A stretch of DNA of 64,000 nucleotides from Ophelia neglecta (Eukaryota), in assembly GCA_965285935.1 (NCBI GenBank), contig OZ260661.1:60698001-60762000 (forward strand), read 5' to 3'. The notes beneath the pieces are model-generated. The model made no database searches. It was not told the origin of the DNA and saw only the letters and a program-made list of their open reading frames with translations. Each line of letters begins with the position of its first letter. Within the stretch, counting starts at the first letter, position 1. This document shows, piece after piece, positions 9,001 to 61,372 of this stretch. The translations under genes and the position numbers were made by a program.

Positions 9001-11240
9001 GTGATGGAGGCTACATCTGGTGAATGAAATGACATTTTAGTTTGAAGTTTTAATTTTCAATAATGGGAAGTTTTAAAACGCTACAAGCCCGGATATTAAT
9101 AAGAGAAAATGCGGATCAGAGCAATGTCCCCCCGGTTGAAAATAAAAGCGTATTTAACAGTACAAAGCAAATATGTGTTCCAATGAACCAATAATTATAA
9201 AGCTTAACATTTTTGTGTTTAACATTAAACATTTAAAATAAGGCCAAATGTAGACAAGGATTACATTGACATTTAAACATTTGGCGTGATATGCCAATTA
9301 GATACTTCATATTCCAAATATATATAATTATATATATTGCTCAAATATATTACGTTATTCGGGCCCTAGTTCTTAAATCAATCATTATTAAAATAAACAT
9401 GCTAACGTTTTGAATCTAAATATACAGTATGACCTTTATCATGTACTACACGTAGTTGCATAGGACATTGTATATGTTTCTCCATAAAACTAGAGCACTG
9501 TCCTAAGCCATAGGCGAAAACTTTTAAATATGATAAGCTTTGCATAGGTCTATACTGGTATCAGAGCCACATTTAATTCATTCAATAATGATTTCAATGT
9601 TTCATGAAAACATTTCAACAAGATAAAGTTGTGTAATTTCAAATTGGTATAGGCAAACCAGTGATAGGAAAGTTTTTCATGATTCCGTCCTCTTTTACAA
9701 GTGTCTCCACAGAAATTCTCAGTTTTTTTCATTAGTGTAAATGGTATGATATAATTTAACAGTTGATAGTTTACAAAAAAGGTGACGAATGATAGGATAC
9801 ATATTTCAAGTAAATATTTAAAGCCACGTTCCCTTTGGAATAAAATTAAGATAGAAAAACGAATCCTTAGCTGAATGAATATCAATAGCAGCAACGATTA
9901 TGAGTATATGATTGCTGCATAGATATGAATAATAAACTCAGTACCTTCAAGTCTCTGATTTGAACTTGCTAATCAAATTATGTATATATGTATGTTATCA
10001 TGCTCATGTAGGCCTAAGGTTAAGAAGACGACTACAAGGCATACATATTCTCTTGTGCAAGCCAAACGACAAATACTACCCAAAGAAATGTCACCTAAAT
10101 CGAATCAATAACTACAATCGAAAATAAAGCGTCTGCTCTCGTCTGCTATACATACATAAATACACATCGATGAATCGAAGACGAGGCGCGAGAGAGAGAC
10201 TGGCACGCTACCTAGCTGCGGTTATATGAAATGCGTGAGCAGTTGCGTAACAGGATATTGTTACACTGGTTGTTCAATGGAGGGCTCCACTAACACCCTG
10301 CTCGCCGTGTTTCGACTCACAGTCGGCGAGAAACCTTGAGCACAAATTCCCAGCATAGTTTCATGCCAGTAACACACCGACATATGAAGCGCCTTGTTAG
10401 CAAAGGAGAATATTGCACAATTATATCTGTGGCAAGTATGCAAAATAAAGAAAATTATAAATAATATCGACTGCTGGGGTATTGATGACTGACGGAGAGT
10501 CATAAGTACAAACACCAGAAGTGAACCAGTAGTTTTAATATTCTGACCTTTACACTGACCGGTGGCCGCCATTACTAAGAATTTATTATTGAAGAAACAA
10601 TCGACCTCGATTGATTTGGGCATCATCCCCAAAAGGTCGAACATTCATGGAAATAAAATGCAGTGTGAGTGAAAAATTTTACAAGCCTATACCAAATATG
10701 AAAATAAGAAAACCCAACCTACCTCTTCGACATAAATTGTAAAGGTCGCGACTTTTCGGACGCTATCTCATTCGAATATTCTGGCCAATCACATTGCGTC
10801 CTTCACAATGTGTACTTATTCCTTCTTAAGTCACTTTGTCTGAGCGAGCACTACAAATTTTCACATAGTTTAAACTGTTCAACAAAACCGCATCGTTCCC
10901 ACATCAACTTTTGTTCGCCATCTTTGCTTTCTGATACCATCCGTTGCAATCTGTAAAATAACCATAGCAACCGCCCTGTGGTTACGTTTCAGTTCACTGA
11001 CGACAGAGGGGCTTTCTCCTCCTTTAAGCGTCCCAAAACCTCTAGGGATAATCCACTTAGAGGTGAAAAGGAGAGCAAAATCAAGTCAAAGACGACACTA
11101 GAAATTACCCGAGGTCTCTTACGCCTGTTCTCTATAACTGACACTGCAAGCTTATCCAAGCCTGTTCACCAAGAGCAATTATTTTATGATTTAGTACGCC
11201 ATAATGTCCGCCATGAGCCGTAATTTTTTGCACTTTCTGT

Positions 11241-11262
11241 CACGTGAGAGTCGGGAGCCAAT
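11241..11262 (-). promoter_or_regulatory. Orphan E-box and CCAAT module, same geometry as the two Hox 5' modules
   Basis: GTCACGTGAGAGTCGGGAGCCAAT: CACGTG at 11241-11246, 11-nt spacer, CCAAT at 11258-11262. Confidence 0.45.
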
Positions 11263-14200
11263 GGTGGCGCTCTTTTCAAAACCATAAAACTCAATCATTG
11301 TGAAATAGTGTCTCGATTTTTCCATTTTGGAACGAATTTGGGCCAGAAAGTGGGAGGAAAGGATTAAGGTAGAACTTTACTGTTGGAGATGTGGTTGGAC
11401 TTTTGTCTGGACTTTTTATCCAAACAAGACATCAAAAAGAGAATGTTGAAGATGGTAAACAGCAGTCGACATCTGCGTCGCATGTCGACAATAAGGGGCA
11501 GTCATGCCTCTCAAGTGAGTATGTTCTTCCTAATAAATTATTCAGTCGTTCTATTCAAGACGCCGCGGCTTTTTTCACCGTCAGTGTCTAGTTTCACAGT
11601 GTACATTGTTGACTAGATACCGCTGATGACTTCTAACTCGTCGTTGGCCTGGGTCATGATTGTAAATGGTAAAAGTAGCAGAACAAATAACATTGTAAAC
11701 CTCTTCAGTGTGACCTATAGAGAGAAGTTTACCAGTCCTTGCCGGACTATAGAATATAAGGCAGGAAAATGTTGATTTCGAGTCCTCGGACTTTTACAAT
11801 CAACGTGTACGTGCAGGCGCACACTGATGTCTGAAATCAGTACATGATCAATAGTGTGTTGACTTTTTAGTAGTTGTTGGTTTGGGCGGAGCTCATCCAG
11901 TGGGACGAGATCAATATTAGCATGATGTCTATTCCCTTCTGAACATTATGTCGGGATTGCTCTTCCAGTAGCATTTCATCGGCCATTTAGTGTTGTACTA
12001 GCTCTAGAAGTTAATGATGGCCACTTGCACGTGTTGTAACCCTTCACCCTGCTAAACTATAAGAGTCGTTTCATTCATTTTTATTCTTGTAGTGAGCCTT
12101 CATTCAAATCGGGCTGAACGGATAGTTACCTCCGATTTATGGTCAAACACCTGGCAATACTTAACAGCTACTTTTATCAAAAAATATGGTCCTGTTATCG
12201 TAGAAAAAATACTGCTTTATGAACGAAACGAGATAAATATGCACTTGAGACTTCGTATCGTCAACGGCTAGACCGAAACGCTCTCTTTGAAATATCATAA
12301 CAGTTCTAGAACTTTCTGTAAGAGAAATGGTAGAATTTTGGGGAGACTTTCTTCAGATATATATATGATCTATAATCGATGCACGGGAATGCTATACCAT
12401 GTAGAATTACTATATAGGGCTACCCGAATATGAAGTCAGTGTCCTATAAAGTAATGTAAGTGTTTAAACATTTTTTCCACTTAATACCACGCTTTTCCAC
12501 TTTCGCAATATGATAACAGACGGGCTACTAGTGTAACTTATCGTTTGGTTGGCATGAACGGTAAGCTTATCTCATTTAGCTCGTGCTTATATTAAACATT
12601 GATTATGCACTAATAAGGTTTTTACCTGTTCCTTTTGTCAATTCTCAAAAAACCACTTCATGGATTTAAAAGAAGCATACAAGTAAAACCGGGTATTTTC
12701 ATTCTAAGTAGTATTTTCAACTGGAAACATCTGAAGATGGTAAAATGTAGCCTTAAAACCACTTTAATAATTTTCCCACTTAATAAACAACATTTCCTTT
12801 TAAGAAAGCAATGTGCATAGTCCTATGTACTAGTACAACTGTGTATAATTATCACATTTGGTTGTTCAATTCTCGACCAAGTCGACAAAGGCCAGTACAG
12901 CATGCTATCATAAGTTCAAATAAAACACAAACCAGACATTTTATTAATACGATTGAGATAGGCCCAGAGGACCAGACAATTTATGACTTTGCGGCAAACT
13001 AGAATCTTTTTATCAGAACTGTATTAACCGATTTCGATAAAAGCAAGGCTACGTTGTCATAAATATATCAGAGGAAGGTGTGCTTTTTTATTGACACATC
13101 ACGCAGAGCTAAACCATGTCTCAGTGTGGTTTATATCGTATAAATTCAATTCACGGGGAGTCCCTTATTGATCGATGTCCAGATGTTATGAAAGACTCGC
13201 TCTAGCAGAAGGCCCTATATATGATAGAAGTACAGAACACTTTCCGCCAGTAAAGTTTAGTAATTGAAAACAGGTCCCAAGACGTGTTTTATTTCCAATA
13301 ATTCTGTTTGAGGCCATTATACCATGCCTGCCAAGGCCGGCGGTTGACAGCTCTAGGTCGACTTGCCAGTGGTTTGTACAGGTCGAGGCCAGAGGCCGAG
13401 CGGGCTGATCGAGGCCATTGGGCCGGCCGGGATGCCTCGTAGGCCAGTGGCACGGCCAGGGTCCCGGGTCAGCCGACATCTGACCGCCACATGGCCTTGC
13501 CACCAATCCAGAGCTAATGCCACATGAACGTCAGATCGATAGCCACACCATGGATATGACAAAGCTGGCTGTCATGGCCATGACTCCGAGATTTAAGGGG
13601 ATTATTCTCGTCCAAGATCAATATAGGACGTGAATCACATATTCATGTTAAGCCTGGTCTAAACCAAGTGCTGAGAAGTATATAATAAGAAAGCAAAATA
13701 AGCACACAGATGGCGGAATTAGTAACCTGGGTTAGTTTACTGTCCCAAACAAACATATCTGTATATTACGACCCACTTTTAAACAAGTTAATAATCTTTT
13801 CCCTCGATTCTTTTTCCTTGTCAAAAAAATTCAACGAGAGACATTTTCCAACAGAGTTAAGCAGTTTCTGAAGTTCTTTTACAGGATTGACACTTCTACA
13901 TTTGTTAATATAAAAATTAATGAAACCCAACCCCTCCACTTCATTTGTATTTTAGAATACTAATGCTCATTAAAAAAAGCAACCAACCATTATTAAAGAG
14001 GATGCTGTCATGTCGGATTCCTTTACATTGACCCAAACCTGGTCAAACTATGTCTGATATATATTTATAAATACTGTAAAACAAAACAGTGAAAAGTAGC
14101 GATATTTGTTAATGGCCATGTTTTTGCCATAATCATTTGCTGGGAATTTTTTTTCTTTAAATTGTTGTTTGATATCAGACTTTCATGGCTCTTTTTAAAA

Positions 14201-17200
14201 AATAATACTTTGAAATCCCTTTTTTCAGGAGTATTAAACGGTGTTCTTGTCTTAAAATTCGTTTCCGAAATAAGGATTGGTCGATTTTTTTAAAGTTTTC
14301 ATACGAGAACAAGATCAAAACAATAAATAACTATTTGAAATGAACAAAACTGTTTTAATTAATTAAAAAACCAACAGTCATGATTACGATCTTTTAAATG
14401 TTTTAGAAATACAAATGTTGCATCTAGTATAGGCCCTAGACCAAATAAAGGTACTCAAATTCACAGGAACAATAGAAATAATGTAATTAATCATAGAAGC
14501 GGCAGATCACATTTTAAACAGCGATTTTTTTCAAACAGATTGCATGAAACTTAGTTAATCACCCGTAAAACCTGCTTCTATATTTTCAACAAAAACTGTT
14601 ATATACTGAAACCCATATTTTCATATAGGGTATATGCTAGAAGCTTTTGCCAATTTTTGGTATAAATAGACTTTATTTGTTTGAATGGCGGTATGCCAAC
14701 AGAACACGGATAGTCATTGACTAGGCAGTTATACCATTTGGCTGGTGACAACACATAACAAAAAAGATCCTGAATGTTATAAATGAGTCTTATTAATGGA
14801 CTTGTCATTATTTCAGATGTAATGGGCTTGATATGGGCAACGAAAATTGATTTAAGCTTGTTTCATGCCGCTTGGTAACATTAGTTACAGCTAAGTATCC
14901 AAGTAGCTCTCTTGTCGACGCACACTGTTAAAACGGATGAAATAATCATTTGATATAATGTAGCATAATGGCAGCTTGCACCTGTAAACGCTCTGTCATG
15001 ACTGGCTTGTTGTTTATTCTGTCTGAAACTGTTACTTGATTCTTATAGGCATGTTGTATTTAATATGGGATATACTATGTATGGATGTAGGTAAAATGAC
15101 GGGGAAAGCTCTAGGCAGATAACCTTTGCCCCCCTGAGTTTGGAAGTAGTCGTAGTGGGTTTTACCCAGCAATCAAAAGAAATTATAGTATCAAATACCA
15201 GTATTCAACACAAACATAACTATTCATGAATTTATCTAGAATCAGGAAAAAGTAAGTGGATTTCTGGTTTTTGTTATCACATTCCCACGTCTTCCCCGGG
15301 CTATTTAGTCCCAATTTTGCTTCATAAACACTGCACGTTTTCTATCTTTCAATTTGTACGGAATTAATTGCACGTATTTCATGTGCTTTCGTGACAGATA
15401 TTTGCCTGATAAAAGTATTTCTCAACCTATTCCTAATTTAGTTTCTCTAGGGATGTATTTGAGCGAACAACTAGCCTCGTTCGCGCAGGAAAAGTCGGAT
15501 ATATCGGATTCGCATGTTCTTGTATATGTTGAAGGCAGATTGAGAAATTCTTCCCATTCATCGCCCCAGGGCTCAGCCAGGGTAAGACATAGCATCTATT
15601 TTCAGTATGTTGTTATTTTTGCAACTGCGTCGGACTGAAAAGTACTTGAGATACTCCTGTCCCTTTCCTTGTTCAGATGGCTGGGAATTTGGTCGTCTGC
15701 TTGCAAGCATCTCTGGGAACTTTCCCAAGAACAGGGGAGCCGGGTGTTTTTAATTGTAATAAATATCGATTGACAATAATTCTAACTTAAAGCTGTCACG
15801 GTTTTTATACTCGATCGACAATTATCAGAAATATCGGAATTTTGAACTTCGATTGCGTAGAACGTTTTAAAAGTTGACTTACCCACTGCGTTGGCAGACC
15901 GTTTTGAAATAGATGCAGGGCTACACATATCCACATCCACTATAAAAGAATCACGTTTCAAATAGTACTTGGATGCTAATATCTGGTTTAATGTGCAAGC
16001 CTGAGGTTGTTGAGCCGGGCACATAAACTGTTTAAAGTTACTGACACAATTAAGTTTAAGACACAGGCCTAGATATATGTGATTTCTAAGGCTGTGATTC
16101 GCTAACTCTCTTTTTTAGTATTTTAAATTGCGTTGAGATGCAAATCCACGTGCACCAAAGACAGTCAACTGGTTAGAGTATGTTACTGCAGATGTCATAG
16201 ATCAACGAAGATGAAGAAATTAATGTGCTTGCATACATTAAAAAGCACTTTGAAGGTGTTACTAAAGAAATAATTCTCAATAAAATGGTCTGGGGCTTCA
16301 CCACTGCTATTCAGGCCGCCTCAGTATCTTCCAGGGAGTGAGCTAAGGGCTATTTACAGTAATTTTATCGAAAGAAACGGAGACAAATGTCCCATTGGTG
16401 GACAAAAGATCAATTTTACAAGATGGTGGTGACCCAGCACCTGGCTATACGCTCGATCAGTAACAATGAAGTTATAGCCGGTTCATATCAGCGTTATAGC
16501 CGTGGCCTGGTAATTTATAGAGGCTTGTAGCAAAACATTACGCAGAACATTGCGCATATAAAACAACTTATATGAGACATTTAAACGACATGTCGGCCGA
16601 TTTATTTCCCTTCCAGCGGGTCTCTTCCAACAGGATACTAGATGAAGTCGGTAGTCGTCTGCATGCGCTTGATCGAATATTACTGATAGGGAAAGAGCTG
16701 CTGTGTGTGCGAAACGAATACCGATTCGGATTCGGATTATTTGGCCTTTGGGATACTTTTTCCTCTTGTTTACTTGGATATATGTGATCACGCTATCTGA
16801 CCTGAAAGCCGACAACAATCGGGCTAAAGGTAAACCGTTTAATACTCATAAACCAGACTGTAATAAGGCCTCATAGTGCTTTATATATCGAAATTATTAT
16901 CTAGAATGTTCCTTTCCCTGAAGTCGTTGATATCATTGTAACTAATTCAAACACGACAGAACCAAGGAGTTATTCGATAGATAGTATTGAAAGCTTGCTT
17001 TAAAGTTTCTCGAAAGATCTTAGCTGTTGTATGTTGTGCCTTTTAGCCGCACCGAAAGTTCTGGCGTGGCGTTGAAAAGTCACAATACAAGATGTATACA
17101 AACTTTCGTCTTTAAGTTTGTGTTTTGTGGCATACTGTCTTCCATGATTTACACATTCTTCTATAGTGATTAAAAACCTATCACTACTGGCAAACGGTGG

Positions 17201-26892: not shown

Positions 26893-35541
<8,649 letters not shown>

Positions 35542-36163
35542 CGTGTCCGAGATGCATTCGTCTCATCCAGGGGTAGATTTGAGGCTGGGTGGGTGCCGGG
35601 GTCTGTCCATCGGTCGAGTTCCTCTGAGACGAAGAGTTGGTGCTCTGGGGGCTGGAGTTGTTGCCCGAGGCTGATGTCGGACCCGGGGGGGTCGACGGCG
35701 TCTTTGAGGCCTGCTGGGAGGCTCCTGCGGCCCCGGCGGGAGGGGGAGACGAGGTGAGGGAGGCGGACATGTCAGCGTCCGAGTTGCTCGGCTCCTGGCT
35801 ACCGTTGCTGCTGCTGCCCGAACTGTACCTATTGCTGTTGGTATAGTTTGTGTTGGTTGTGGCGGTGTTCGCATGTGGGGAGCCAGAAGATGCCATTACG
35901 GTTGGCGGAGTTGGCGTGGAGTTTTCTCGGTTGAGGGGAGGGTGGCACAGCCTCTGACTGTTCATGCTGTAATAGTCCCTACCATTGTGCCCGGTCGAGC
36001 TGGGACTGGTGCTTTGATACTGGTAGCCGGGGCTGCTCACTCCCGTGTAGCTCCGGTAAGGACTAGTGGACTGCGGATAGTCTCGACCGTTCTCGCCCCC
36101 TCCACCGTCACTAACTCCTTGATTATAACAGGTCGTCAGCGAGTTCACGAAATAGGAACTCAT
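35542..36163 (-). CDS. Scr: Scr/Hox5 gene, coding exon 1
   Basis: ATG at 36163 begins MSSYFVNS (Hox5-type N-terminus). The middle is S/T/P/N-rich and the exon ends PQIYPWMRRMHLGH, followed by a phase-1 donor G|GTAATA at 35542/35541. Confidence 0.95.
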
Positions 36164-36283: not shown

Positions 36284-36328
36284 CATATAAGGAGAGTAGC
36301 CCAAGTCACGTGGCCACGGTTACCCAAT
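36284..36328 (-). promoter_or_regulatory. Scr proximal promoter module (CCAAT box, E-box, TATA-like)
   Basis: CACGTG at 36307-36312 and CCAAT at 36324-36328 (11-nt spacer), with minus-strand TTATATG at 36290-36284, about 120-165 nt upstream of the ATG. Confidence 0.6.
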
Positions 36329-53149: not shown

Positions 53150-53521
<372 letters not shown>

Positions 53522-61172: not shown

Positions 61173-61372
61173 CACGTGACTCGAGTGACCAATCCCTAGT
61201 AAGGCACTGGTCATATGACACGGAGCAGGCCGAAGTGGTGCGCTGAGAGATGGATGGGCGCGTTGGAAGTTAATTACCAGCGGGCCCACGGCTCGGGTCA
61301 GCGGAGGCGTGTCACTGCTAGCCCGGGCTAATGCGTATCGTGCATAACCTCTGGACCGCGCCGGGTTTTATA
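61173..61372 (-). promoter_or_regulatory. Lox5 promoter/5' region (E-box and CCAAT module, upstream TATA box)
   Basis: CACGTG at 61173-61178 and CCAAT at 61189-61193 (10-nt spacer); minus-strand TATAAAA at 61372-61366 in CpG-rich sequence. Confidence 0.6.

Follow-up and report, generated by a model that had tools for sequence, protein, structure and literature searches.

The closest described counterpart of the element reported here is the promoter of human HOXB4, which needs two short sequences, ATTGGCT (HXRE-1) and CACGTG (HXRE-2), at -153 to -55 of the ATG and has its transcription starts at -90 to -65 (PMC2193192). A complex of NF-Y and USF acts at HOXB4, as cited in PMC3675019, and the spacing known for NF-Y/USF pairs is 10-12 bp (PMC4889920); the available text of PMC3454409 states no spacing. 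In the accessible sections of a review of NF-Y, the only Hox mentions are HoxB4/C4 and C. elegans egl-5 (PMC11802806). CCAAT boxes and E-boxes are also kept in pan-bilaterian conserved promoters of developmental transcription factor genes (PMC10735318). Here, we describe a module of this kind in the Hox cluster of the lophotrochozoan Ophelia neglecta, and in particular a copy without an adjacent Hox gene at position 11241 of a 64,000-nucleotide (nt) stretch of that cluster (the window; contig OZ260661.1, G000:C1:60698001-60762000 of the 762-Mb genome). The analysis also covered ~800 kb of surrounding DNA (864 kb in all).

Both the NF-Y/USF element type and an independent or distal promoter of miR-10, in flies and mice, are known. 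In Drosophila, the primary miR-10 transcript (pri-miR-10) arises from a separate promoter in the Scr-Dfd interval, 6.8 kb upstream; it contains one intron, and its start has initiator (Inr), motif ten (MTE) and downstream promoter (DPE) elements (PMC3290615). In the mouse, the distal Hoxd4 promoter P2 lies upstream of miR-10b, and its transcript contains non-coding exons and runs into Hox4 (PMC3185001).

The cluster contains ten homeoboxes, every one on the minus strand (Hox1, Hox2, Hox3, Dfd, Scr, Lox5, Antp, Lox4, Lox2 and Post2), and Scr and Lox5 lie in the window. In the reading direction of the Hox genes (Hox-sense) the module is ATTGG-N10-12-CACGTG; on the opposite strand it is CACGTG-(10-12 nt)-CCAAT. 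A preliminary description of the window had reported the module in one orientation at 11241, 36307 and 61173, which we confirmed with spacers of 11, 11 and 10 nt, and had put the E-box about 145 nt before the Scr ATG and about 100 nt before that of Lox5, in good agreement with the distances measured below. It had treated the module as one of Hox promoters, and copies were indeed found at the other anterior genes, Hox1, Hox2, Hox3 and Dfd. The copies upstream of Hox genes are:

G000:C1:60536362, Hox-sense: Hox1 module, 132 nt before the ATG.
G000:C1:60559932, Hox-sense: Hox2 module, 193 nt before the ATG.
G000:C1:60576314, Hox-sense: Hox3 module, E-box 75 nt before the ATG.
G000:C1:60664048, Hox-sense: Dfd module, 92 nt before the ATG.
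Window 36307..36328, plus strand: Scr (Hox5) module, spacer 11, 143 nt before the ATG at 36163.
Window 61173..61193, plus strand: Lox5 module, spacer 10, 98 nt before the ATG.
G000:C1:61084470, Hox-sense: Post2 module, 763 nt before the ATG.

A module was located at most 15 kb upstream of the homeobox in 7 of the 10 Hox genes and in 0 of 26 other homeobox matches (Fisher P=1.4e-5), the latter taken from C1:0-71.5 Mb, the part with a full record of modules. Where a non-Hox gene has a long first intron, a module could escape the 15-kb limit, but no copy in the correct orientation lies closer than 148 kb to any of these matches. Across the 560-kb span of the cluster we counted 12 exact copies, all at spacers 10-12, against 0.98 expected from local word counts, and the reversed geometry did not occur in this span at those spacers. 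The five copies in the span that do not stand directly before a Hox ATG are in excess as well (P=0.003). Dinucleotide shuffling of the window produced a mean of 0.087 modules and a maximum of 1, so that 0 of 300 shuffles reached the observed 3. The near-even spacing of these three (25066 and 24866 bp), pointed out in the preliminary description, is correct but does not reflect a period: the other module intervals are 23.6, 16.4, 87.7 and 45.2 kb, and with intervals ranging over 16-88 kb the evenness is a coincidence. This cluster-wide signature, shown in one genome, is a stronger and more interesting result than the copy at 11241.

The likeness to human HOXB4 comprises both words, the ATTGG on the sense strand and a comparable distance to the ATG (75-193 nt at six Hox genes here). 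HOXB4 is a vertebrate Hox4 gene, whereas in the present lophotrochozoan seven Hox paralogues carry the module, as does a site with no gene. Human NF-Y/USF modules have the same words and spacing and, like those here, are found in promoters, enhancers and repeats (PMC4889920, PMC3730095); they were measured by chromatin immunoprecipitation, whereas ours are predicted binding sites, and a concentration in a Hox cluster is not described in the available portions of those papers. The pan-bilaterian promoters are alignable orthologous segments, with no Hox gene named in the accessible text (PMC10735318), whereas the present case concerns paralogues, with two boxes and their spacing, in one genome. 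A literature search, in which subscription papers were mostly outside the coverage and most matches were judged by their listing, returned no account of the module at a series of Hox paralogues, nor in the Hox cluster of any invertebrate.

At the other Hox genes, Lox2 carries a variant with CACATG ~1.9 kb upstream (G000:C1:61061130), Lox4 combines a CCAAT box with a YY1-like word but lacks an E-box, and at Antp the first 3 kb are empty and a CATGTG variant is found at 14 kb upstream (G000:C1:60810551). The variants at 60810551 and 61061130 are candidate distal promoters of Antp and Lox2, genes without an exact module. Homeoboxes are absent from the 172-kb gap between Lox4 and Lox2 (G000:C1:60882500-61054000) and from more than 200 kb upstream of Post2 (G000:C1:61093100-61302000), and Post1 was not found in the 864 kb analysed. 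The names of the Hox genes are presumed from signature residues and from gene order. They agree with the seat of miR-10 between Hox5 and Hox4 (PMC3394115). The two homeoboxes of the window are:

26980..27150, minus strand: homeobox of what we take to be Scr, from its signature residues and its place beside miR-10.
53312..53482, minus strand: homeobox of what we take to be Lox5, from its parapeptide.

The copy at 11241 is the only exact module in the 60.7-kb gap between Scr and Dfd. Its parts and surroundings, in window positions, are:

11241..11246, no strand: E-box CACGTG in TCACGTGA context, USF/MITF-type by analogy, matching the strict pattern defined below.
11256..11264, plus strand: CCAAT box AGCCAATGG (ATTGG on the Hox-sense strand), CCAAT at 11258-11262, 11 nt from the E-box.
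11206..11214, minus strand: ATGGCGGAC, which we take to be YY1-like, 26 nt past the E-box.
11155..11200, minus strand: predicted transcription start zone, from the HOXB4 geometry (PMC2193192); the Hox3 ATG is just 75 nt past its E-box.
11117..11122, minus strand: possible, weak 5' splice site GTAAGA; alternative GTAATT at 11108.
10783..10791, plus strand: further strong CCAAT box GGCCAATCA in the same orientation, without a partner E-box.
10717..11901, no strand: low-variant stretch, in which 11253 G>A, within the spacer, is the single variant out of the 26 over 9900-13900.

With its 11-nt spacer, the pair conforms to the NF-Y/USF element, an E-box 10-12 bp from a CCAAT box in fixed orientation, and AGCCAATGG agrees with RRCCAATSR, the extended NF-Y consensus. 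Unlike the proximal Hox promoters, in which a Hox ATG follows within ~200 nt (763 nt for Post2), the copy is not followed by such an ATG: the longest minus-strand open reading frame (ORF) with an ATG starting within 400 nt encodes 29 amino acids (aa), and a homeobox is absent between Scr and Dfd; the preliminary description had seen no Hox ORF in the 11 kb remaining in the window. The YY1-like words that it listed on the minus strand are present (ATGGCGG starting at 11214 and ATGGCG at 11202), and the identical 9-mer ATGGCGGAC stands in the Dfd promoter, 8 nt past the E-box, with 8 occurrences in 864 kb on both strands. Other details fared less well. One of the Cdx/Hox-type CATAAAA sites is downstream on the minus strand (11188-11182), but the other is upstream on the plus strand (11283-11289), and 2 sites against 1.1 expected is no enrichment and lends no support. 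The donor GTAAGA at 11122 exists on the minus strand but carries no weight, since that strand of the window has 11 such hexamers. Within 500 nt of the module there was 1 variant versus 6.5 expected (P=0.005). The variants come from three runs, which behave as genomic DNA contigs of one sample; X1 is identical to the window and perhaps its source, and no joints were seen. These three were the runs found to contain the site, none of them RNA, which bears on its expression in neither direction. Variant density was higher over 14712-16975 (20-25 in 2.3 kb) than over 9817-13926 (12-24 in 4.1 kb). Judged by its sequence, the 11241 copy is very likely to be a real and functional NF-Y/USF-type module.

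The miR-10 hairpin that the preliminary description predicted to the left of the window was found on the minus strand 23.2 kb downstream of the module (G000:C1:60685996-60686064; z=-5.5, below the Rfam gathering score), and its mature arm is identical in 36 other animal contigs. From the 11241 module it is 23177 nt to the hairpin and 45286 nt to the Dfd ATG. The module is located upstream of the hairpin on the same strand with no gene between, and the interval from 11241 to the hairpin contains no other exact or CATGTG-type module, no ORF of at least 170 aa and no homeobox remnant. The box at 10783 is the only other strong Hox-sense CCAAT box between 11241 and the hairpin.

Our preferred reading, held tentatively and with somewhat less than even confidence, is that 11241 starts a minus-strand non-coding transcript reaching the hairpin and would thus be the pri-miR-10 promoter. 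NF-Y and a USF-type bHLH-ZIP dimer would bind the CCAAT box and the E-box, transcription would begin near 11155-11200 on the minus strand with a short first exon, and Drosha would process miR-10 from the transcript. About a third of our confidence goes to a transcript that might also splice on to Dfd, by analogy with mouse Hoxd4 P2, and the rest to a stand-alone pri-miR-10 as in Drosophila. The proposed arrangement resembles that of the fly in having its own promoter between Scr and Dfd and a spliced non-coding transcript; it differs in distance and in core elements (6.8 kb and Inr/MTE/DPE in the fly, 23.2 kb and a CCAAT/E-box module here). It resembles Hoxd4 P2 as a gene-distal promoter upstream of miR-10, but P2 lies 5.2 kb from the coding region, whereas the distance to Dfd is 45.3 kb here and Dfd carries a separate module 92 nt ahead of its ATG.

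The preliminary description had treated 11241 as the one gene-less copy. In fact, seven copies in or beside the cluster, 11241 among them, do not stand directly before a Hox ATG, five being Hox-sense and two reversed. The other six are:

C1:60957732 and C1:61038806, Hox-sense: gene-less copies in the Lox4-Lox2 gap.
C1:61212464 and C1:61220567, Hox-sense: gene-less copies upstream of Post2.
C1:60527105, reversed: just 3' of the Hox1 homeobox.
C1:61060817, reversed: upstream of Lox2.

The reversed Hox1 copy scores 28.4 bits on a matrix built from the Hox promoters, exceeding most of the training copies; both reversed copies are candidate antisense-driving Hox promoters. The cluster also contains six miR-10-family hairpins (z -3.7 to -6.8), a number in keeping with the expansion described in pleistoannelids (PMC12257675) and with an animal that is probably an annelid:

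G000:C1:60625027, plus strand: miR-10-family hairpin (L009).
G000:C1:60666308, plus strand: miR-10-family hairpin (L005).
G000:C1:60686056, minus strand: miR-10-family hairpin (L003).
G000:C1:60781459, minus strand: miR-10-family hairpin (L027).
G000:C1:60893939, minus strand: miR-10-family hairpin (L039).
G000:C1:61102379, minus strand: miR-10-family hairpin (L060).

Each of the five gene-less copies in Hox-sense orientation has a Hox-sense miR-10-family hairpin downstream within its gap (60686056, 60893939 or 61102379; post hoc P=0.036), at distances of 23-145 kb, and sequence upstream of such hairpins makes up 51% of the locus. We regard this association as a lead and not as a result. One hairpin, in antisense orientation, precedes the Dfd promoter by 2.3 kb and another lies 3 kb past the Antp homeobox; a weak seventh is at 61019315 on the plus strand (z=-2.2). 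A reversed CATGTG variant is located 6.1 kb upstream of an antisense miR-993-like hairpin.

Several observations speak against a pri-miR-10 promoter at 11241. The distance of 23 kb is more than three times that of the Drosophila start. GC (62nd percentile) and CpG (37th percentile) are ordinary at the site. The Hox promoter matrix scores the copy at 14.1-18.4 bits, whereas Hox copies held out of the training set (of 6-7) reach 20.1-29.6, and ranks it 21st in the 864 kb. Words of 8-10 nt are also shared by 5 other pairs among the 91 module pairs (6 shared words of at least 8 nt in all). The variant dip, seen in one sample, has P=0.06 once clustered variants are counted together and P=0.15-0.39 at ±250 nt. 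In human cells enhancers make up 25% of NF-Y peaks, with USF1 at 27% of those (PMC3730095), and the seven copies not directly before a Hox ATG belong here too. The site may be an NF-Y/USF enhancer, or a chromatin-opening or boundary element, for Scr, Dfd or miR-10 that makes no stable transcript of its own, a possibility that we consider rather unlikely. Co-occupancy of enhancers by NF-Y and USF1 (PMC3730095), the tie of USF1 to chromatin boundaries (PMC3675019), the same seven copies and the lack of promoter-like GC/CpG or directional signal all favour it. The polarity of 11241, however, is that of all Hox promoter copies, ATGGCGGAC is held in common with the Dfd promoter on the downstream side, and no other exact module lies upstream of miR-10 in the gap. 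It is also improbable, and a shade more so than the chance match considered below, that 11241 is the promoter of a long non-coding RNA ending short of the hairpin, with miR-10 started elsewhere. Annelid Hox loci produce many non-coding transcripts, which are antisense (bioRxiv 10.1101/2021.01.30.428931), and the hairpin is 23.2 kb away, but no better Hox-sense promoter candidate precedes it, the strong CCAAT box at 10783 standing alone without a module.

Chance also has to be weighed, and here the frequency of the module in the whole genome matters. The earlier concern that the module might be common genome-wide applies to its loose form and not to its strict form. The loose pattern has 968 matches versus 655 at control spacers 15-17, only a 1.5-fold difference, which indicates that most loose matches are chance. 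The strict pattern, TCACGTG-N9-RRCCAATSR, is strongly enriched, with 56 matches (~29 once repeats are collapsed) where the backward reading and spacer 16 yield 2 each, and takes in the Hox1, Dfd and 11241 copies; it was, however, composed post hoc with the 11241 copy known and from consensus words. We examined 20 of the 56; the 36 left out are 3 Hox copies and 33 from repeat families, tandem arrays or duplicates. A Pfam scan of their surroundings (438 of 439 ORFs of at least 75 aa; short first exons are invisible to it) placed 1 of the 20 directly before an ORF, a histone (L140). Four were promoter-compatible, with same-strand coding-like sequence downstream only (L128, L131, L132, L135). Five lay inside or behind genes (within genes L124, L126 and L137; behind a same-strand exon L123; facing opposite-strand exons L138), which counts against a promoter, as does the lack in the 20 copies of a sense-strand donor excess (16 vs 17) or a shortage of AATAAA (10 vs 12). 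Three were near transposon domains (L129, L133, L141) and seven had no usable context; 2-4 chance matches are expected among these copies. On the Pfam context and the flat donor and polyadenylation counts, the strict module is no sure promoter mark outside Hox. Strict modules are also carried by a 725-nt tandem array (G000:C129:646-5021), a 46-nt-unit array (C12:10953778-10954170) and dispersed repeats (12 dispersed copies of one spacer sequence).

That 11241 is a functionless chance match appears improbable. By local word counts, the presence of a loose copy in the Scr-Dfd gap has P=0.056, the matrix score is under that of true Hox copies, and control spacing accounts for about two-thirds of the loose matches genome-wide; set against this are membership of the strict class, with 2 control matches in 762 Mb, the over-representation of gene-less copies across the cluster (P=0.003), the 9-mer in common with Dfd and the variant dip. 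It is highly improbable that the copy is the promoter remaining in the Scr-Dfd interval from a lost Hox gene or from an early duplication of the 5' region of Dfd. Its module and polarity are those of Hox genes and it is closest to Dfd through the 9-mer, but tblastn of the Scr and Dfd homeodomains and of the Scr, Dfd and Lox5 first exons against the 60.7-kb gap gave a best E=0.46, and nothing in the remaining analysed DNA matches the 1-kb region at better than E=0.07, although a very old loss would leave no trace. A transposon origin was unsupported: the 301-nt region is single-copy, in a search that passes over words of very high frequency, and for the 27-kb interval one weak repeat match was found in ~1 Mb of analysed DNA.

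Searches for homologous RNAs added little. None of the 36 metagenome miR-10 contigs has the module upstream, where they reach only 0.2-8.5 kb compared with 23.2 kb here, and their alignment to the Scr-Dfd gap recovered the hairpin only. Rfam gave no match at gathering score on the window, and a HOTAIR_2 match at 11386-11459 was rejected as noise (E=0.26, 23 of 60 bits). On 30 flanking loci Rfam likewise gave none at gathering score, though a seed-and-fold scan found hairpins there. A miR-100-like hairpin is located 0.5 kb from let-7, in the usual cluster (L022, G000:C7:13907107-13910178).

Taken together, the element at 11241 is a real motif of a known type, probably functional, whose best, tentative reading is that of a putative pri-miR-10 promoter. 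It offers an exact candidate place for the start of a lophotrochozoan pri-miR-10, of which we found none in the searched literature. The search likewise returned no module of fixed geometry that is common to most of the paralogues in one Hox cluster but absent from other homeobox genes. It is conceivable, though we think it doubtful, that CCAAT-(10-12)-CACGTG represents the ancestral promoter of the Hox genes, which every tandem duplication carried along before the bilaterians diverged and which most paralogues, and vertebrate HOXB4, have retained, and that its gene-less copies equip the miR-10 family embedded in the cluster with Hox-like transcription units. Should the module also be present in other spiralians, deuterostomes and arthropods, it would represent a promoter signature of the Hox cluster of Precambrian age and a single common entry point for opening the cluster, and it would permit the sequence-based finding of unannotated starts, including those of Hox-embedded microRNAs.

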